DNA of 10,970 bases from a virus (IMGVR_UViG_2579778535_000009:1-10970), one strand, 5' to 3'. Numbered from the stretch's first letter, positions 345 to 9,173 are shown. Made by a program: numbers and translations. Notes: generated by a model not told the origin, from the sequence alone.

Positions 345-2110
345 GACAGCAGCCCTCCCACCGTTTTACTGATATCGCTTACCGGCGCACCTGCTTTTTT
401 GTCACCCTGTTGCCTTGCCGCCTGACCAGCCAGCAAGCGAAGTTCACGATAAGCCTGACGCCCCGGAATACCAAAGAAGCGGAATTGCTGAACACGATGC
501 AGAGACGCCCAGGCATTCACGTATTCAGCGTTATCACGCAGAGATTTACCCGTTTCCTTGCTGATCTCGCCAGCCAGACCACGACCGTCAATGTTCTTAC
601 TGATATATTTCGCGATGTAGCTTGTCGGCGTTCCTTTGCGCGGGTTAATCAACTCAGACTTAAAGCGCGGCCCAGTGTTATTGCCCAGCTCCTCGCGGTC
701 TTCACGGATGGCAAACTTACGCAGTAATGCAGTAATGGCACGGCGGTCTTTTTTGCGCATGAAACACAACAGGTGCCAGTGAACTGTGCCGTCATGATGC
801 GGCTCAGCCACCCGCACGCCATACCAGCGCAACCCGGCTTTGTGCATCGCCTTACGAAATGCAGCAAACATGCCGACCAGATAATCGCTGCTTTGTCTTA
901 CCGTCGCGTTTGTCCAGGTCGGGTTTGGTCTGCCGTTATTTAGCGTGGAATGGAAACGCGACGGACAGGTGATAGTGTAGAAAACGGCGCAGTCACCGCG
1001 CATTTCCGCGATAAGCTCCAGACCTTTAACACAGGCCATCATCTCATTGCGGCGATGCGCAGGGTTGCTGCTGCTGGCGTTTACCACATCCTCCATGTCC
1101 AGCGTGTCGCCGTCTTCGTTCACCAGTTCATGAGAACGGAAAAACTCCAGCGACTTACGGCGCTGCTCACGTTTATGCATCACGGCTTCATAGCTGACAT
1201 AAGGAGATGCTTTTTTGCTGACCAGGCAAACAGCGCGCAACTGCTCTTCCCGCCATTCGCAACGCATCTTCCATAATTTCCGATACCACCAGTCGCCGCA
1301 CAACATACGCGCCAGCGAACCCGGAATGAGTTCATAGGGCACGGGTTTACGGCGGTTTCTTTTCCGACGGAGTTGCTCAAACGCAGGTGGGATGACATCC
1401 AGACGCAGGGTTTCCGCCGCCACCTTTTCCCATGTCTTGCGGATTTCTTCTGGCTTAACGTCATCGGTGGCATACAAATCGCCACAAGCTGCATCAAGGC
1501 ACATGCTCATATGCGCAGCTACCAGGGTGGACAGGCGTTTCACATGATCCTGACTCATTTCAGGCAGAATCAGCAGGCCGTCCAGCCCTTCATGGCTTGC
1601 CATAAAGCGAAAAGAAGTGGATAGCTGACTCTCGCGTACATGCTCCAGTCGTTCCAGACATGGCTTAATCGTCTCACGCAAATAGCGGGAATAAGCCTTT
1701 GGCCTGCCCAGGCTGCTGAAGTATTCAATACGTTGCATCAGCGGCTTGCTGATATGGGAAGGCTGGGCGTTGACGTCCGCCAGAATGACCATATCCGGAT
1801 TAAAACGCTGCTGCTCATGCGCCAGCTTTGCCCGACTAATGAGCTTATCCTGCTCCATTTCGCGCTGGACAGGATCACGGGATTCATTAAAGAAATAACG
1901 CTCCCAGACCTGATCACTCAGCGCCTCACGGCGCAGCTGTTCCTGCTCGTTATCGGCAGCGTACAGAGTGATCAGGTTTGAAAGCGCAGAAACCGGCGCA
2001 ACTTCCGCCGGGTCCAGATAAGGGTTAATGGCCTTTTTCGGGCTGTTCCATGAGAATGCTGCGGCGATCTCGTTAAAGCCGCTGCAGTTGTTCATATCAG
2101 CATGGCTCAT
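341..2110 (-). CDS. A: Phage replication initiation protein A (P2 gpA / 186 A family rolling-circle Rep endonuclease), possibly C-terminally shortened
   Basis: 589-aa ORF. Carries an HUH-type motif ([10 protein letters not shown]) and a paired-tyrosine motif ([13 protein letters not shown]) typical of P2 A-type nicking proteins. The start ATG overlaps the dam stop (ATGA). Only about 87 aa follow the YIAKY motif, far fewer than in P2 A as I remember it. Confidence 0.85.
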
Positions 2111-2964
2111 GCACGCACTCCGTACACGGCAGAACTATCCACGCCACACGAAGGATCAAATCCCACCCAGCAGCGCGGCCCGGAAACAGCGATGATTTCT
2201 GTTGCTGATTTACCCTCGCCAGCTGCCACACCGATGCTGCGTTTTACCTTGATATAGTGGTGAGTAAAATTGCGATACAGCGAACGAATCAGGGATGTGT
2301 CACTGTTAGAAACAATGACCGGATGTCCTTCAGATGATCGATGTTCAAGAACGGATGCCAGGTGATACTGGTCATCTTCAGTGAAACCATCAGTGTGATA
2401 GCCGGAAAACGTACCGTCATACGGCGGATCGCAATACACCACATCCCCCGCCTTCAACATCGCCAGCGTTTCATCAAAGCTGGTGCAGATAAACGTTGCC
2501 CGCTGGGCTTTTTCTGCAAATGCGCGAATTTCTTTTTCAGGGAAATACGGATTTTTATAATTACCGTAGGGAATGTTGAAATGCCCACTCTTGTTATAGC
2601 GACATAAACCACGGTAACCGTGACGATTGAGATACAGGAAATATACCGCTTTCATGAAATCAGTAATTTCAGTTGAGTAATTAAACTCCTGCCTTATGTT
2701 GTAATAAGCTACCTCCCTGTTTGCGATCTCAAATAAAACTCTGGCGCGAGATATAAACGATTCACAATCAGCGGCAACCTTTTTATAGAGGTTGATTAAA
2801 TCAGGATTAATATCCGCAACCAGATAGCTGGGGTAATCCGTCTCCATCATCACAGCACAGGAACCCGCGAAAGGTTCAACCAGTCGCGGGCCAGCAGGAA
2901 GATGTTTTTTCAGTTCGGACATTATGGCAGTTTTATTTCCCGCCCATTTCAGGATGGTGCTCAT
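2107..2964 (-). CDS. dam: DNA adenine methyltransferase (Dam family, N6-adenine MTase)
   Basis: The ORF track gives 2107-3024; the likely true start is the ATG at 2964 ([11 protein letters not shown]...), preceded by GGAGG. The N-terminus LKWAGNK...[11 protein letters not shown] and the DPPY motif ([10 protein letters not shown]) match E. coli Dam-type methyltransferases. The start overlaps the stop of the upstream zinc-finger ORF (ATGA). Confidence 0.85.
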
Positions 2965-3188
2965 ACAGCACCTCCGTTGTAATGTTTGCCTTTCAGCTCT
3001 GCAATTTCCTGACAGGTAATGCAAAGCTGCACACCCGGAATGGCACGGCGGCGTGCTGGCGGAATTGGCGCTTCACACTCAATGCAAAGCACGCGGGACA
3101 CGCCCGGCGTTTTGGCACGGGCAGCACGGATATGGCGTTGGCGTTCTTCTTCAACGCGCTGCTGTACGAGATCCATTGCATCAGCCAT
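2961..3188 (-). CDS. TraR/DksA-family C4 zinc-finger protein (phage early protein)
   Basis: 75 aa with CxxC-(17)-CxxC (CIECEAPIP...CITCQE) near the C-terminus, as in TraR/DksA-like phage proteins. Its start overlaps the upstream ORF stop (TAATG). Confidence 0.7.
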   Translation of the reverse strand: MADAMDLVQQRVEEERQRHIRAARAKTPGVSRVLCIECEAPIPPARRRAIPGVQLCITCQEIAELKGKHYNGGAV

Positions 3189-3487: not shown

Positions 3488-3829
3488 TTAATTCGGCATG
3501 GTTAGCCGTCTGGGAAATAAGCTCACCACTGCACGAAAATGATTCATTGCTTTAATCAACTCCCGCTTTTCGTCAGTGGTCAGCTCATTAATGCTGATGC
3601 TATGACGTTCAGCTGGAATTTTTGCCATAAAGAATATGGCAGCCAGTGCCCGTTTATTTTGTTCGCTATTAATATCCCGTGGATCACGCATATCTTTAAT
3701 AAACCGTTCAAGCTCTGACTCAATATTCAGACCAAAAACTTTCGCCCTTAACTCCGCAATATGATTAAGTCCATTCAGGCGTTCACCGGGTCTTAATGGA
3801 ACAGTCGCCGCAGCGCCTTCAATAGCCAT
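3488..3829 (-). CDS. Hypothetical early-operon protein (113 aa)
   Basis: ORF in the early operon with a G-rich SD upstream of the ATG at 3829. Overlaps the 3' end of the upstream 66-aa ORF by 37 nt. Function unknown. Confidence 0.5.
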   Translation of the reverse strand: MAIEGAAATVPLRPGERLNGLNHIAELRAKVFGLNIESELERFIKDMRDPRDINSEQNKRALAAIFFMAKIPAERHSISINELTTDEKRELIKAMNHFRAVVSLFPRRLTMPN

Positions 3830-3993
3830 TGGTTCCCCCGTTTTTTCGTTGATAGTTCTGCCAGCAATTCATCTTGCGAACGGCACGGATGCCAGCGTTT
3901 ACCATCCTCACCCATGATCCAGCCGTGACCGTAGTGCATTGCCGGACTTTGTTTTACCAGCAGCGATGCAAATGATGGTTCTTTCGTCAGCAT
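3793..3993 (-). CDS. Hypothetical small early protein (66 aa); positional analogue of 186 fil/dhr-type host-takeover genes
   Basis: The ORF track gives 3793-4023; the ATG at 3993 (MLTKEPSF...) is preceded by GAGGTG and avoids overlap with cII. Function inferred from position only. Confidence 0.45.
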   Translation of the reverse strand: MLTKEPSFASLLVKQSPAMHYGHGWIMGEDGKRWHPCRSQDELLAELSTKKRGNQWLLKALRRLFH

Positions 3994-4000
3994 AAGCACC

Positions 4001-4510
4001 TCACAGCAAACCGAATGAAGCACCGAGGCCAGTTACAGTATCAACTGCACTTGCCATCGCAGGATTAACCTGTAAACGGGCCTGCAATGAAACAGCAGCT
4101 AACGCCATCAGTCGTGTAACAGAGTTAATGCTGCTGATAGCATCACGACGACCTGCACTGGTTTTTACATCGCCAGATACCGCACCTGCAGCAACACGCC
4201 CGATCTCTGCGGTTGCACTCATGACGTAATGTGGCAGTTTCTCTTTTGCCACCTCATTAATCGGTACACATGGCAGGCAGTGAATCTGTGCCAGAAAACC
4301 GTCTACCAGCGTTGAATCTTCCGTCAGATCGGTAAGTAGCCAGATATCTGGCGCATTGAGCTGATGCGGTTGATCTGGGTTGAGTTTGTTTCGCAGAGTC
4401 TGGACATTCATTCCTGCACGTTCTGCCAGCTTCGCCATATTGTGACGAAGTGCAAAAGCTCTACAGGCTTCATCAAAATGCGGGTGTTTGGAAATCTTAT
4501 AATCAAACAT
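4001..4510 (-). CDS. cII: Phage regulatory protein CII (186 CII / CP76 family lysogeny-establishment activator)
   Basis: 169 aa, the same length as 186 CII. The sequence MFDYKISKHPHFDEACRAFALRHNMAKLAERAGMNVQTLRNKLNP... closely matches my recollection of 186 CII, including the HTH region. It is the second gene of the lytic operon. Confidence 0.8.
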   Translation of the reverse strand: MFDYKISKHPHFDEACRAFALRHNMAKLAERAGMNVQTLRNKLNPDQPHQLNAPDIWLLTDLTEDSTLVDGFLAQIHCLPCVPINEVAKEKLPHYVMSATAEIGRVAAGAVSGDVKTSAGRRDAISSINSVTRLMALAAVSLQARLQVNPAMASAVDTVTGLGASFGLL

Positions 4511-4542
4511 GCTACCCCCTTAGAAAGTTCTCATAATTGAAC

Positions 4543-4785
4543 TTACTTACCAACAATGACGCGGAAGTTGGAATGACCGAGGGATTCACGGACCTGATCG
4601 GTTTTGTACATTAAATAACGCAGGCTTACGCGGCCTTTGTTTTTTTCTTTCTTGACCATGTATTTAGCAAGCTGACCATGGTGAATTTTTTGATACACGG
4701 AGCCGCGGGAGATACCTTCCCATTCCGCGAACTCTGCAGGCGTAGCCATCTCTTTTGGTACACGAATTGAAATATCAGTGCTCAT
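4543..4785 (-). CDS. apl: Apl/Cox-type small HTH protein (excisionase / lytic-operon repressor), first gene of the early operon
   Basis: 80-aa ORF transcribed divergently from cI. HTH-like segment PAEFAEWEGISRGSVYQKIHHGQL. SD GGGAGA upstream of the ATG at 4785. The assignment is mainly positional, by analogy to the 186 apl and P2 cox layout. Confidence 0.55.
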   Translation of the reverse strand: MSTDISIRVPKEMATPAEFAEWEGISRGSVYQKIHHGQLAKYMVKKEKNKGRVSLRYLMYKTDQVRESLGHSNFRVIVGK

Positions 4786-4820
4786 AGTGCAGTATCTCCC
4801 GATTAAGGTTTGGTTTACGT

Positions 4821-4890
4821 CGTTTTATCTCGTTTTACTTGATTCAATATTTGATACATCGAGATACTACGATCCAATATTTGATACGTC
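4821..4890. repeat. Operator-like direct repeats in the cI/apl switch region: 20-bp repeats at 4841-4860 and 4871-4890 (GATYCAATATTTGATACRTC, 18/20 identical) and a tandem 10-bp repeat CGTTTTAYCT at 4821-4840
   Basis: Seen directly. The 20-bp copies are 30 bp apart. One overlaps the -35 and spacer of the pR candidate; the other lies just downstream of its -10. Confidence 0.45.
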
Positions 4891-4892
4891 AA
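4864..4892 (-). promoter_or_regulatory. Candidate sigma70 early lytic promoter (pR-like): -35 TTGACG (4892-4887), 17-bp spacer, -10 TAGTAT (4869-4864)
   Basis: Read on the minus strand as CCTGTTGACGTATCAAATATTGGATCGTAGTATCTC. Correct orientation and distance (about 70 nt) upstream of the apl start. Confidence 0.4.
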
Positions 4893-4904
4893 CAGGATTA
4901 AAAA

Positions 4905-5537
4905 ATGATACAGGTAAAGGTTGGAGAGAATACAGGGGGAAGAGAGGCTATCCATAGACTAATGGCAGCCTATGATTTCAAGTCCAGACAGCAACTTTGC
5001 GATCACTTAGGCGCATCAAAAAGCACCATGGCAAACAGATACTTAAGAGATAGTTTTCCTGCAGAGTGGGTGATTCAGTGCGCCTTGGAAACAGGAGTTT
5101 CTTTACTGTGGCTAACCACCGGACAGGGGGAGCCAGGTCCAAACATTGAACCTAAAAAAAATATCAATTCCGTGAACTCCAGCAAGGTTGTACCTCTTTC
5201 TGAACTAGTATCTCCTGAAATTGACAAGGCGACTCTCAACGGTGGTTTATTGGTCGATGCTGGAAAAGCAATCATTGATAGCAGCATACTCCCCTCAGAC
5301 TCAAGCAACCTACTGCTGGTGACTACTTCTGGTGATTCTTATTTAATAGATCGCAACCAAACACCACCAGTAAATGGTATGTGGTTAGTCGATATCGACG
5401 GGATAAAAAGCATCGTTAAATTGACTCGACTCCCGGGAAACAAATTAGTAGTGCATCAGGATGATTCATCGTTTGAGTGCGGTCTGGATGACATTGAGGT
5501 AGTAGGCCGCGCACTGAAAATCATTAAGAGCCTTTGA
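4905..5537 (+). CDS. cI: Immunity repressor CI (186-type)
   Basis: Divergent from apl and immediately upstream of int (cI stop TGA 5535-5537, int ATG 5539). HTH-like segment SRQQLCDHLGASKSTMANRYL. Start uncertain: the ATG at 4905 has AGGA 7 nt upstream; the ATG at 4962 would give 191 aa, close to the size of 186 CI. Confidence 0.7.
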   Translation: MIQVKVGENTGGREAIHRLMAAYDFKSRQQLCDHLGASKSTMANRYLRDSFPAEWVIQCALETGVSLLWLTTGQGEPGPNIEPKKNINSVNSSKVVPLSELVSPEIDKATLNGGLLVDAGKAIIDSSILPSDSSNLLLVTTSGDSYLIDRNQTPPVNGMWLVDIDGIKSIVKLTRLPGNKLVVHQDDSSFECGLDDIEVVGRALKIIKSL

Positions 5538-5538
5538 T

Positions 5539-6570
5539 ATGACCATCAGAAAACAGCCGAACGGAAAATGGTTGTGTGAGTGCTATCCCAATGGACGCAA
5601 TGGCAAGCGCGTGCGTAAGCAATTTGCCACGAAAGGCGAAGCCATTGCGTTTGAAAGCTTCACAATGGAAGAAGTGAATAAAAAACCGTGGTTGGGTGAA
5701 AAGGATGATCGGCGACGCCTATCAGAATTAATTGAGCTTTGGTATTCCCTGTATGGTCAGACACTCGCAGACCCCAAGCGCCTCATGGCGAAACTTAGAA
5801 TTATCTGTAATGGTCTAGGCGACCCCATCGCCTCTGAGCTGACAGCCGGAGACTTTACGAAATACCGCGAAGCACGGTTAAAAGGTGAAATACGAAATGA
5901 AGATGGCACGCTTATGTCGCCCGTTAAGCCCCGCACGGTAAACCTTGAACAGCGCAATCTATCATCGGTGTTCGGTACATTAAAAAAACTAGGACACTGG
6001 TCAGCACCAAACCCGCTGGCAGGACTTCCGACCTTCAAAATTGCCGAAGGTGAGCTGGCTTTTCTTTCCACGGACGAAATCAAGCGCCTGTTGGCGGCAT
6101 GTGCTGAATCTCAAAGCCCTAGCTTACTAATGATTGCAAAAATATGCCTAGCTACTGGCGCACGGTGGAGTGAAGCAGAAAATCTGCAGGGCCATCAGTT
6201 ATCCAAATACCGCATCACTTATACCAAGACGAAGGGCAAGAAAAACCGTACCGTGCCAATATCTCAGGATCTTTACAACGAACTCCCTAAAAACAGAGGA
6301 AGGCTATTCACCCCATGCAGAAAAGCCTTTGAACGGGCAGTAAAACGAGCTGGTATTGAACTGCCAGAGGGACAATGCACCCACGTTCTACGCCATACAT
6401 TCGCCAGCCATTTCATGATGAACGGCGGAAACATACTGGTACTGCGCGATATTTTGGGCCATGCCGATATAAAAATGACGATGATTTACGCCCATTTTTC
6501 TCCAGACCATCTGGAAGATGCAGTAACGAAAAACCCTTTGAACTTTATATACTTGTCGAATAACATGTAA
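5539..6570 (+). CDS. int: Tyrosine integrase (P2/186 Int family)
   Basis: 343 aa. The N-terminus (NGKWLCECYPNGRNGKRVRKQFATKGEAIAFE) resembles P2-type Int. Catalytic motifs ARWSE, HVLRHTFASH and MIYAHF (Tyr) are present. It reads toward the ssrA fragment. Confidence 0.85.
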   Translation: MTIRKQPNGKWLCECYPNGRNGKRVRKQFATKGEAIAFESFTMEEVNKKPWLGEKDDRRRLSELIELWYSLYGQTLADPKRLMAKLRIICNGLGDPIASELTAGDFTKYREARLKGEIRNEDGTLMSPVKPRTVNLEQRNLSSVFGTLKKLGHWSAPNPLAGLPTFKIAEGELAFLSTDEIKRLLAACAESQSPSLLMIAKICLATGARWSEAENLQGHQLSKYRITYTKTKGKKNRTVPISQDLYNELPKNRGRLFTPCRKAFERAVKRAGIELPEGQCTHVLRHTFASHFMMNGGNILVLRDILGHADIKMTMIYAHFSPDHLEDAVTKNPLNFIYLSNNM

Positions 6571-6610
6571 CTTATAATGTAAGTACACAAAAGTGATCTT
6601 AATCTTAAAT

Positions 6611-7606
6611 ATGAAACCTAATTTAATTTCACGTAAACAGTACCAACACCTCAAAAATGAGTTAAATAGACTTGAGAGCTTACCATATAGACGAGGAAAC
6701 AACCCAACCAACCTCAGAATATTAAAACTAAGAGAAGATCTAACAAACTCTCTTGTTGAATCCAGAAAAAGAAATTCAAAAAAAATTAATGGAGGAAATG
6801 TTAGCTGTATAATATGCAAGAAAAATTTCAAAAGTGCTCATGGCCTATATGAGCACTATCGCGCCAAGCATAGCAATATGATTGAACACCCTACCTCATT
6901 GTTTAATAAAGAAATAAATGGCAATACAACACTGCTTGAAAGCATTTCGCATCCTGTCACAAAAGGTATACCAATAGCAGAACACGATAAAAAAATATCA
7001 TCCATTACGCTAAACAGGGAAACTAAATATTTCAATGTAGATGCGTATAATCTGGCATGCCTTTCATTAACAAAAAGTGAAGCAATAAAAATCGCTAAAG
7101 ATGAATTATTATCAAGGCAGTTTCTTGGACAAAAAAACACTCTAGAACCTACTCTACCGCCAGTCATATTTATAAATCCCTCTGATACAATTAGTATACC
7201 AGTTGTCACAAAAGGCAATACTCATCTGCAAACAGTATTACAGCGTGACTCTGGCGAACAGGTTGACTTTAAAAAAAGGGTTCTAAAAAACTTCTCAAAT
7301 GTATGCGCAATAACAGGTTACAACCTCCCAGTATTGCAGGCATGTCACCTTGAACCATTTTCTCAGACCCAAAACCATAGAACCAACAATGGAATACCTC
7401 TTGAACCTACCCTTCATGCCTTGCTTGACCGAGGTCTACTAGCCATACATCCAGATAATTTAACTATTCATTTTGCTATCGATTGCTATTACAAAAATAT
7501 ATATGAAGGAAAAAATATCAAACCTCATAAGATTGATTTAGATAAAAATTCACTGCTAATAATTTGGAAGAACTTTCTTTTGAATGTTAAAAACAGCCAA
7601 CCGTAA
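6611..7606 (+). CDS. AT-rich cargo gene: protein with an N-terminal C2H2-type zinc finger and a C-terminal HNH-type (HNH_2-like) nuclease domain; candidate defence or accessory nuclease
   Basis: The ORF track gives a GTG start at 6593; the first ATG is at 6611. Zinc finger: CIICKKNFKSAHGLYEHYRAKH (C-x2-C-x12-H-x4-H). C-terminus: CAITGYNLPVLQACHLEPF...NNGIPLEPTLHALLDRGLLAIHPD, which matches the CAITG...HI.P...NGL.L...H.LFDRG pattern of HNH_2 nucleases as I recall it. Base composition is visibly much more AT-rich than the flanking phage genes. No obvious SD. Confidence 0.6.
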   Translation: MKPNLISRKQYQHLKNELNRLESLPYRRGNNPTNLRILKLREDLTNSLVESRKRNSKKINGGNVSCIICKKNFKSAHGLYEHYRAKHSNMIEHPTSLFNKEINGNTTLLESISHPVTKGIPIAEHDKKISSITLNRETKYFNVDAYNLACLSLTKSEAIKIAKDELLSRQFLGQKNTLEPTLPPVIFINPSDTISIPVVTKGNTHLQTVLQRDSGEQVDFKKRVLKNFSNVCAITGYNLPVLQACHLEPFSQTQNHRTNNGIPLEPTLHALLDRGLLAIHPDNLTIHFAIDCYYKNIYEGKNIKPHKIDLDKNSLLIIWKNFLLNVKNSQP

Positions 7607-7732
7607 GTTAGCCTAAAATTGGCGACAACTTGGCGGCAGAGCATTAAAAATGCGTAAAACGGATAAACACAGGATAATAGTAACACACTGTTTTTAAACG
7701 CAAACTACTGTTTTCATTGTATTAAAAATAGT

Positions 7733-7777
7733 ATGTAGGAATTTCGGACGCGGGTTCAACTCCCGCCAGCTCCACCA
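7733..7777 (+). ncRNA. ssrA: 3'-terminal 45 nt of tmRNA gene ssrA (T-arm and acceptor 3' strand ending CCA); attachment-site copy, not a full gene
   Basis: ATGTAGGAATTTCGGACGCGGGTTCAACTCCCGCCAGCTCCACCA matches the 3' end of E. coli ssrA as I recall it. Upstream sequence is AT-rich coding DNA with no tmRNA 5' domain (no GGGGCTGATTCTGG about 360 nt upstream). Confidence 0.8.
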
Positions 7778-7810
7778 ATTTTTGATATATTGAAGTTCAG
7801 TGAAGTCTAT

Positions 7811-7845
7811 CAAGCCCGCATGGAACCAGCCTTGCGGGCTTTTTT
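7811..7845 (+). terminator. Rho-independent terminator-like hairpin (AAGCCCGCA ... TGCGGGCTT followed by TTTTTT)
   Basis: Perfect 9-bp inverted repeat with a T-run, about 35 nt downstream of the ssrA CCA end and upstream of the intA start. Confidence 0.45.
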
Positions 7846-7902
7846 ACGTCTATAGTAGTCTACCGAGAATTGCTAGAATCTACTCGTTATGGCACCCTTT
7901 TT

Positions 7903-7946
7903 GGGACCCAACACAAAGGGTCCAAAACATGAGGGTCCCAAACATG
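7903..7946. repeat. Three copies of a GGG(A/T)CC(C)AAA motif at exact 15-bp spacing (7903, 7918, 7933), the first inverted relative to the others, overlapping the intA RBS and start
   Basis: Seen directly: TTGGGACCCAA cacaaa GGGTCCAAAACATG a GGGTCCCAAACATGG. Candidate protein-binding array. Confidence 0.4.
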
Positions 7947-9173
7947 GCAAAAATCGCTAAGAAGCTCACTGACACTGAAATCAAAAGCACCAAACCTGCC
8001 GAGAAAGAGGTTAACCTTTTTGACGGCGATGGTTTGCTCCTGCGAATCGCCCCCTTAGCGAAGGGAGGAAAGAAAAATTGGTATTTCAGATATGCAGTGC
8101 CTGTGACCAAAAAGCGAACTAAGGTGAGCTTAGGAACCTATCCTCACCTTACACTTGCGAAGGCACGAGCTTTACGTGATGAGTACTTGTCGTTGCTTGC
8201 AAATGGTATAGACCCACAAGTTCATAACACCCACAAAGCCAATGCCCTTAAGGATGCAACGGAACATACATTTCAAGCAGTAGCCAAGAAGTGGCTTGAT
8301 GAGAAAGTCAAAACGTCAGGCATCTCCCAGGATCATGCTAACGACATCTGGCGAAGCCTAGAGAGAAATATCTTTCCAACGTTGGGTGATACCCCCATTA
8401 AGGAGATTCGCCCTAAAATGCTTAAACAGCATTTAGACCCCATAGAAAAACGAGGTGTCCTTGAAACACTTCGCCGCGTCATATCCCGCCTGAATGAAAT
8501 TTTCCGCTATGCAGCAACAGAAGAACTCATAGAATTCAATCCGGCTGACAACCTGGGGCAACGGTTCAGCAAGCCAAAAAAACAGAATATGCCAGCATTA
8601 CCCCCTTCCGAACTCCCCCGCTTCCTGGTTGCTCTAAACAATGCTTCTATCCGTTTAGAAACAAGGCTACTGATTGAGTGGCAACTTCTCACATGGGTTC
8701 GCCCTGGTGAAGCTGTTCGCACAAGATGGTCAGATATTGATATAGAAACCAGCATGTGGAACATCCCGGCGGAGTTTATGAAAATGAAGAAGCCTCACAA
8801 AGTTCCACTGAGCAAAGAATCTTTGCGAGTCTTGGATTCAATGAAAGCCATCAGCGGGCATAGAGAGTGGGTTTTTCCCAGTATCAAAGCTCCACTCAAT
8901 CACATGCATGAACAAACAGCTAATGCGGCTATAATCCGTATGGGCTTCGGAGGTGAGCTTGTAGCTCATGGTATGCGATCAATCGCTAGAACGGCGGCTG
9001 AGGAGTGTGGCAAGTTTAGAACTGATGTCTTAGAAGCCGCCCTTGCCCACTCGAAAAAAGATGAAATAATTGCAGCCTACAATCGTGCAGAGTATCTCAC
9101 AGAACGTGTGGTTCTCATGCAATGGTGGAGTGACTATGTTTCGTCTCAAAAATACAAAGTTATTGCCGCATAA
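7944..9173 (+). CDS. intA: Tyrosine integrase, P4/CP4-57 IntA family (N-terminal DUF4102-like arm-binding domain)
   Basis: The ORF track gives 7800-9173, but that start would run through the terminator hairpin. The ATG at 7944 (MAKIAKKLTDTEIKSTKP...) has GAGGG 8 nt upstream. Conserved blocks DDIWRSLERNIFP, WQLLTWVRPGEA, HGMRSIARTAA, DVLEAALAH and YNRAEYL match my recollection of CP4-57 IntA. It lies immediately downstream of the ssrA 3' end, as in CP4-57. Confidence 0.85.
   Translation: MAKIAKKLTDTEIKSTKPAEKEVNLFDGDGLLLRIAPLAKGGKKNWYFRYAVPVTKKRTKVSLGTYPHLTLAKARALRDEYLSLLANGIDPQVHNTHKANALKDATEHTFQAVAKKWLDEKVKTSGISQDHANDIWRSLERNIFPTLGDTPIKEIRPKMLKQHLDPIEKRGVLETLRRVISRLNEIFRYAATEELIEFNPADNLGQRFSKPKKQNMPALPPSELPRFLVALNNASIRLETRLLIEWQLLTWVRPGEAVRTRWSDIDIETSMWNIPAEFMKMKKPHKVPLSKESLRVLDSMKAISGHREWVFPSIKAPLNHMHEQTANAAIIRMGFGGELVAHGMRSIARTAAEECGKFRTDVLEAALAHSKKDEIIAAYNRAEYLTERVVLMQWWSDYVSSQKYKVIAA

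Follow-up and report, generated by a model that had tools for sequence, protein, structure and literature searches.

The interval between the divergent apl and cI genes described here belongs to the region that controls lysis and lysogeny in the remnant of a Fels-2/186-type E. coli prophage. We consider it likely that this region carries two face-to-face promoters, pR and pL, with two near-identical 20-bp repeats serving as operators for the CI repressor and a series of phased hexamers serving as sites for Apl. On the comparisons given below the repeats are most likely two CI operators, because each contains a dyad, their conservation is symmetric about the dyad, they follow CI through natural swaps of the immunity genes, and the same geometry recurs in other immunity types. 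The kind of switch is well known and of the 186-type family (Peduoviridae). The operators of this particular class are without analysis in the literature that we searched, in which no operator or promoter analysis of Fels-2-type switches was found; Nilsson et al. have noted that the CI immunity classes are little studied (PMC3448106).

The prophage and its switch genes

The window, by which we mean the whole stretch of 10,970 nucleotides that was analysed, contains the following genes and end marker of the prophage:

4001 to 4510: cII, the next gene after apl
4543 to 4785, minus strand: apl, 80 aa, encodes a Cox-like excisionase and repressor and opens the lytic operon (phrog_575, phrog_6912)
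4905 to 5537, plus strand: cI, 210 aa, immunity repressor of the 186 type whose interdomain linker is long
5539 to 6570: int, the next gene after cI
7688 to 7777, plus strand: 3' fragment of ssrA (tmRNA), the att core repeat and end of the prophage (partial match to Rfam RF00023)

The interval under study is 119 bp long (4786-4904), since apl ends at 4785 on the minus strand and cI begins at 4905 on the plus strand. The order apl-cII with divergent cI-int is that of 186, and near-identical E. coli prophages are annotated likewise. CI consists of a helix-turn-helix N-terminal domain (Phage_CI_repr, PF07022, E 5e-31) and a C-terminal domain (Phage_CI_C, PF16452, E 6e-28) homologous to the wheel-forming one of 186, and it matches the 186 CI structures PDB 2FJR and 2FKD. 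In 186, CI assembles into a 14-mer wheel, which wraps and loops DNA. Protein identity between the window and 186 is only 30-33% (33% for CI and 30% for Apl); the window Apl is 100% identical to those of Fels-2 and Cartapus. With both 186-CI domains in the repressor, and with Apl, CII and Int present in the 186 order, the original prediction of a 186-type genetic switch is borne out. No RNA genes were found in 4786-4904 by Rfam or ARAGORN.

The window DNA is >99% identical to prophages in many E. coli chromosomes, with matches in 238 of 5426 complete E. coli genomes, and shares 74-90% DNA identity with phages of Klebsiella, Salmonella (SEN8, SopEPhi, Fels-2) and Yersinia (MLG42). The prophage lies in ssrA, whereas 186 integrates in a tRNA-Ile gene. 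Positions 7742-7778 are repeated at the other prophage end in strain A41, and the int-proximal att arm aligns with the attP of Fels-2 and of SEN8.

Compared with the intact prophage of A41, the one in the window is what a deletion has left. Positions 1-381 are the 5' part of tail gene D of that prophage (100% identity), and from 380 on the sequence runs on inside replication gene A; ~25.7 kb is missing, which comprises the genes for tail, lysis, head, terminase and portal together with one third of gene A, at its 3' end. The truncated gene A is the ORF of 589 aa at 341-2110. The immunity region is intact, and therefore the cryptic prophage may still confer immunity. In the fil region, from the DUF5347 gene to cII, ~250 bp of A41 (34610-34869 of locus L008) is absent from the window at 3829-3838, a case of local mosaicism between prophages that are otherwise 95-99% identical.

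Between int and the att arm there is an ORF of 337 aa (6593-7606) with an HNH_2 nuclease domain (PF13391; phrog_20585, function unknown). Because Fels-2 and SEN8 have no gene there, we regard it as a cargo gene (moron) at the prophage end. Directly past the ssrA 3' repeat, 7800-9173 encodes a second integrase, of the P4 type (Arm-DNA-bind_3, Phage_int_M, Phage_integrase), a sign that another island follows in tandem at the ssrA hotspot. An Rfam match to IsrM, below threshold (42 bits vs a gathering score of 376) and in the region 7688-7845, overlaps the 5' end of this integrase gene.

The predicted promoters pR and pL

Two candidate promoters face each other across the interval:

4864 to 4892, minus strand: pR-like lytic promoter, -35 TTGACG (4892 to 4887), 17-nt spacer, -10 TAGTAT (4869 to 4864)
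4767 to 4795, plus strand: candidate pL-like maintenance promoter, -35 TTGAAA (4767 to 4772, inside apl), 17-nt spacer, -10 CAGTAT (4790 to 4795)

The pR hexamers have 9 of 12 consensus matches in a promoter scan. The yield of the scan was not above chance (2 sites, with 1.4 +/- 1.2 expected), and the support for pR therefore comes from its position and conservation rather than from the scan count. To measure conservation we used 90 loci of the window immunity type, collected from GTDB genomes, IMG/VR and GenBank phages, which reduced to 41 distinct gap-free sequences. Among these 41 variants the pR -10 is invariant and the -35 has rare single-sequence changes only; a CGTCAA-like -35 is also present in nearly all CI groups examined. 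The distance between the cI start and the beginning of the pR -35 is 15 nt in the annotated 186 record and 13 nt in the window. A minus-strand sigma70 promoter had been proposed for the interval, and TTGACG-17-TAGTAT, conserved and at the position of 186 pR, agrees well with that proposal.

It had also been proposed that no convincing plus-strand promoter for cI lies inside the interval, and that such a promoter would be weak or would lie within the apl coding region, as in the face-to-face arrangement of 186. Within 4786-4904 the scan found no plus-strand promoter able to express cI; its sole plus-strand match, TTGATA-17-AATGAT (4881-4909), was ruled out because its -10 overlaps the cI ATG. 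According to the 186 record, pL has its -10 at 5-10 nt upstream of the apl ATG and its -35 at 13-18 nt into that gene, and the window candidate TTGAAA-17-CAGTAT has offsets from the apl ATG identical to those of annotated 186 pL (TTGCGA-17-CATGAT), as the proposal would have it. The candidate matches the consensus at 8 of 12 positions, under the scan threshold, and its -10 at only 3 of 6; among the 41 variants its -35 is invariant and its -10 nearly so. The positions of the pR and pL hexamers are nearly unchanged in the other CI groups. Judged from its sequence, pL is intrinsically weak, as expected of a maintenance promoter of the 186 type.

If transcription starts are put ~7 nt past each -10, pR would start at ~4857 and pL at ~4802, and the two would overlap face to face by ~55 bp. 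In 186 the corresponding overlap, between the starts of pR and pL, is 62 bp.

Two inverted repeats in this area were set aside. The pair AGTATCTC / GAGATACT (4791-4798 / 4861-4868) consists of the two -10 hexamers with similar downstream bases and is no separate element. A perfect 10-nt inverted repeat (4706-4715 / 4792-4801), which might allow a fold around the apl start, is perfect only in the window lineage, its relatives having no compensatory changes, and was taken as chance.

Probable operators for CI and candidate sites for Apl

The two repeats were located with a repeat finder and are assigned as follows:

4841 to 4860: copy 1, GATTCAATATTTGATACATC, candidate promoter-distal CI operator, dyad core TTCAA-TAT-TTGAT at 4843 to 4855, centre 4849
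4871 to 4890: copy 2, GATCCAATATTTGATACGTC, candidate promoter-proximal CI operator, dyad core TCCAA-TAT-TTGAT at 4873 to 4885, centre 4879

The copies are identical at 18 of 20 positions (90%) and 30 bp apart, start to start. The interval was shuffled 2000 times with its dinucleotides preserved; the best pair of 20-mers without overlap reached at most 16 of 20, and none (0/2000) reached 18. The repeats flank the pR -10 hexamer: the dyad of copy 2 lies in the pR spacer and overlaps the edge of the -35, and that of copy 1 would fall at ~+3 to +15 of the pR transcript, given the start assigned above. The original prediction had described two near-identical 20-bp direct repeats, 30 bp apart and placed to occlude the minus-strand promoter, and both parts of that description hold, the similarity being far above chance and the repeats bracketing the -10. 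What they share is the dyad TYCAA-N3-TTGAT, centred on 4849 and 4879. The symmetry of the dyads is incomplete (4 of 5 outer pairs in copy 1), and the appearance of a direct repeat would arise because one imperfect dyad has been used twice together with a few flanking bases. No further copies of the 16-mer operator were found in the window with up to 3 mismatches.

Conservation among the 41 variants follows the dyads. In copy 1, T4844, C, A and A4847, together with T4851 and G4853, are invariant, and A4849, T4852 and A4854 change in one variant each; free variation is found at 4848, at 4850 and in the tail (4855-4860), so that the conserved positions are symmetric about 4849. In copy 2 the sole common change is at the dyad centre, 4879; the part of this copy outside the dyad coincides with the pR -35 hexamer.

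Copy 2 begins with GATC. This Dam site (4871-4874) marks the outer edge of the proximal operator candidate, 1 nt away from the pR -10, and a GATC is found near the pR -10 in every CI group examined despite differing surroundings; 186 has none. Among the 41 variants SopEPhi alone lacks it at 4871-4874. The phage of the window encodes its own dam gene (2107-3024). The GATC could be a CI half-site that the groups share or a methylation-sensitive control point.

Natural recombinants separate the contributions of CI and Apl. Fels-2 and Cartapus, which have the same Apl as the window (100% identical) and a different CI, have no 20-bp repeats. SopEPhi, MLG42 and Kp4845-2 have an Apl that is 68-72% identical and a CI in which 73-74 of 75 N-terminal residues are identical, and they retain copy 2 unchanged (SopEPhi with AATC at 4871-4874) and the core of copy 1. 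Across these recombinants the repeats thus track the identity of CI and not that of Apl.

A similar arrangement is present in other immunity types. The Cartapus/RE2010 type has the dyads ATCTTGATTCAAGAT and TCTCACATCAAGAGA, and L020, a prophage in an Enterobacteriaceae genome (G50), has ATTCCC-N5-GGGAAT and GATCAC-N5-GTGGTC. In both types the two dyads are non-identical and lie around the pR -10 (745-789 in L114, the Cartapus record, and 2438-2484 in L020); their centres are 30 bp apart, and 12.5 nt separate the proximal centre from that of the -10, as in the window. Together with the CI sequences that go with them, these dyads provide a small natural data set for the recognition code of the family. 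The Fels-2 group shares the CI recognition helix and has only one clear dyad, TTCAA-N3-ATGAA, 25 bp from the -35 site, and a rule of two dyads at 30 bp is therefore not universal. We also sought a single half-site rule covering the window type, the Fels-2 type and 186, and none could be defined. In the RE2010 record (L115) the immunity genes are annotated as short fragments (apl at 528-686, 159 nt; cI at 1216-1440, 225 nt), and the translation of the apl region has stop codons, which suggests frameshifts or sequencing errors in that record.

For Apl, the better sites are to be sought in a second set of repeats, with a possible counterpart near the prophage end:

4801 to 4846, plus strand: candidate Apl operators, GATTAA at 4801, GGTTTA at 4812, GTTTTA at 4822, GTTTTA at 4832 and GATTCA at 4841
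7645 to 7700, minus strand: possible Apl sites in the int-proximal att arm, TTTTTA at 7650, GTTTTA at 7660, GTGTTT at 7670 and CTATTA at 7680, in 10-bp steps

Part of the first set is the 10-bp tandem TCGTTTTATC / TCGTTTTACT at 4820-4839, which had been pointed out in the original prediction and is readily seen in the sequence. Tandem Repeats Finder gave no match for it, the tandem being too short for that tool, and for this reason it was assessed by shuffling for phased hexamers. The hexamers at 4812, 4822 and 4832 are strong and exactly phased, and those at 4801 and 4841 are weaker; a chain of three such hexamers arose in 1.1% of 3000 shuffles (p about 0.011). Among the 41 variants the GTTTTA hexamers are conserved and the bases between them are variable, and phased GTTTTA or GTGTTA hexamers are also present in Fels-2 and Cartapus, with the same Apl, and in L020. 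In 186, Apl recognizes 6-bp direct repeats every 10-11 bp, seven of them between pR and pL and five at attP, and binding requires at least 3 adjacent sites (PMC7498355). In the 186 sequence these sites are (A/T)TTGCC-like and read on the strand that runs from apl to cI, with the opposite orientation at att; the window hexamers have the same strand and location. The att-arm series is a weak match, with one exact GTTTTA and weaker phased hexamers, and its orientation is opposite to that of the switch sites, as in 186. We regard the phased GTTTTA-like hexamers as the best candidates for Apl sites, and on balance they are rather more probably such sites than not.

The direct repeats had originally been likened to Cox/Apl-type binding sites, that is, to sites read head to tail by Apl as a Cox-type directionality factor and repressor, and this we now think improbable. 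The two units do lie in direct orientation and GATAC recurs at 4853, 4863 and 4883, but each unit has an internal dyad, the conservation is symmetric about that dyad, and the GATAC tail of copy 1 is variable. The weak GATTCA at 4841 does extend the series of phased hexamers, yet the sites known for Apl are 6 bp long and recur every 10-11 bp, unlike 20-bp units at 30 bp (PMC7498355). Similarly, the 186 Apl array begins right after the pR -10, whereas copy 2 lies upstream of the -10, beyond the region that Apl covers in 186. The swaps also weigh against this reading, since the repeats follow CI rather than Apl and are missing from Fels-2 and Cartapus, whose Apl is 100% identical.

We give as little credence to the possibility that CI reads the repeats head to tail and not as dyads, in the manner of the C repressors of P2, WPhi and P2 Hy dis. 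The P2 C repressor has ~99 aa, and the repressor here is a two-domain CI of the 186 type, not a P2-type C. In P2-type switches the operators are a pair of direct repeats, variable in length and in spacing, close to the early promoter (PMC1904268), which would suit a repeat that, at 20 nt with 18 of 20 identical, is longer than its dyad. The excess over the dyad, however, is not conserved in copy 1 and is the -35 hexamer in copy 2, and in Cartapus and L020 the same places are taken by two dyads that are not identical to each other. It is very improbable that the repeats serve IHF or another architectural protein of the host, or that they are a recent duplication without function: the minus strands of the repeats, TATCAAATATTGG and TATCAAATATTGA, are one mismatch from the IHF consensus WATCAANNNNTTR, but the mismatch falls in the TTR element, the repeats co-vary with CI type though the hosts are the same enterobacteria, and the pattern of conservation over 41 variants from several genera argues against neutral duplication.

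The proposed switch and its known relatives

With the repeats as CI operators and the phased hexamers as Apl sites, the switch would work as follows. pR would fire leftward from ~4857 into apl-cII, and a weak pL would fire rightward from ~4802 into cI-int. Each dyad TYCAA-N3-TTGAT would be the operator for one dimer of CI helix-turn-helix domains, and in the lysogen CI bound cooperatively to both dyads would block RNA polymerase at pR. By shutting pR, CI would also end convergent transcription and so relieve interference on pL; cI and int would be supplied by pL, and during establishment by a CII-dependent pE in addition. Once CI is inactivated, pR would fire through apl-cII. During induction, monomers of Apl on the phased hexamers, which extend from the distal operator to the pL -10, would put a bend in the DNA and lower the activity of both promoters, and Apl would also act at att for excision.

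The region resembles that of 186 in several respects. In addition to the homologous two-domain CI, Apl, CII and Int in the same order, the window has a pR candidate beside the cI start, a pL candidate with its -35 inside apl, and one operator candidate in the pR spacer, all placed as in 186; phased T-rich hexamers lie between the promoter candidates, on the strand of the 186 Apl sites; and the apl-cII junction has candidate half-sites for CII together with a pE-like -10, again as in 186. The interval measures 119 bp in the window and 129 bp in 186. 186 CI binds inverted repeats, with three operators two turns (~21 bp) apart, whereas the window has two near-identical operator candidates 30 bp apart (PMC3675496). 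The window half-site in TYCAA-N3-TTGAT is distinct from the 186 sequences, and the linker of the window CI is ~18 residues longer than that of 186 CI.

The closest geometric match to the window pair is found at 186 pB, where two A-type CI sites, ATTCAC-N5-GTGAAT, lie 32 bp apart centre to centre, one over the -35 and the other just past the -10 and over +1 (PMC3675496). The pB sites are 17 bp long, with N5 between 6-bp half-sites, and their spacing of 32 bp compares with 30 bp in the window, both being about three helical turns; pB controls the late activator gene B and not the lytic/lysogenic switch. The three-turn spacing at pB has been reported to distort the DNA and was considered disfavoured (PMC3675496).

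We tentatively suggest, as a possibility that is doubtful at present, that for Fels-2-like CI proteins with a long linker (~210 aa in all) the preferred pR operators are two dyads 30 bp apart, symmetric about the -10. An 18-residue longer linker would let the DNA-binding domains lie further from the centre of the wheel, so that three-turn spacing would be relaxed. Three long-linker immunity types, those of the window, of Cartapus/RE2010 and of L020, have the 30-bp geometry, and a preference for three turns was raised as a possibility for 186 by Wang et al. on other grounds (PMC3675496). If this were true, linker length and operator spacing would evolve together in a wheel-forming repressor.

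The P2, WPhi and P2 Hy dis switches also have convergent early and repressor promoters, two operator units, and a Cox/Apl protein with a dual role (PMC1904268, PMC3448106). In P2-type switches the C repressor has a single domain, the operators are true direct repeats and there is no cII; the window, by contrast, has a 210-aa repressor with the C-terminal domain of 186 CI, a cII gene and dyad-bearing repeats, and hence does not belong with the C/Cox switches.

Among closer relatives (Felsduovirus and related phages), SEN8, SopEPhi, MLG42 and Kp4845-2 share with the window the N-terminal domain of CI as well as the repeats and an interval of 119 bp, and judged by these features they and the window probably form one immunity class. 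Fels-2, with the same Apl, differs in a CI that is 58% identical, an interval of 116 bp and the absence of the 20-bp repeats. The proposed assignment of operators and promoters extends to an immunity class of 186/Fels-2-like prophages that is also present in phages of Salmonella, Klebsiella, Citrobacter and Yersinia and that includes SopEPhi, the carrier of a virulence gene. Phages with the same Apl and a different CI, and with the same CI and a different Apl, also offer a natural comparison of how far the wheel tolerates changes in operator number and spacing. The benefit is mainly practical, and no new kind of regulation is revealed.

Beyond the operators at pR, CI of 186 has distal sites, FL and FR, which flank them at ~300 bp, and it also has sites at the promoter of the late activator. 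The 186 record places FL inside cI, FR at the apl-cII junction, and further sites at pB. Related 15-16-mers were found at the three analogous places in the window and in the intact relative A41, those in the window being listed here with the nearby CII sites:

5163 to 5177, minus strand: FL-like candidate GTTCACGGAATTGAT, inside cI, a weak pattern match
4527 to 4542: GTTCTCATAATTGAAC, an FR-like element located where 186 has FR/pE, between apl and cII
4484 to 4510: candidate CII-binding half-sites GTGTTTG-N13-CAAACAT, at the cII start

The FL-like candidate lies at a distance from pR similar to that of 186 FL and is unusually conserved, with third-codon variation of [1,0,5,0,0] against a gene mean of 9.7. 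Another match to the dyad pattern inside cI, TCCAAACATTGAA (5138-5150), was dropped, its conservation being no higher than that of the rest of the gene. The palindrome-like GTTCTCATAATTGAAC contains the likely pE -10, a strong CATAAT (4532-4537, plus strand), and is identical at 13 of 16 positions to a site upstream of ogr in A41. The third related element, GTTCTCAATATTGAT, lies upstream of ogr in A41 and coincides with a likely promoter element there, a pB-like TTCTCA-16-TATCAT that aligns with 186 pB. In all the distal candidates the half-site spacing differs from that of the pR dyads. The FR-like element is kept in all CI groups, and a promoter role therefore suffices to explain it; since both it and the element upstream of ogr are kept whatever the CI type, they cannot speak for CI specificity, and the promoters pE and pB may be all that they represent. 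We treat all three distal sites as leads only, which from their sequences could be promoter elements.

The candidate CII half-sites are conserved in relatives and match the ATGTTTG...CAAACAT within the annotated CII site of 186. Together with the FR-like element they make 4484-4542 an analogue of the CII-dependent establishment promoter, with the pE/FR layout of 186, that is conserved in all relatives.
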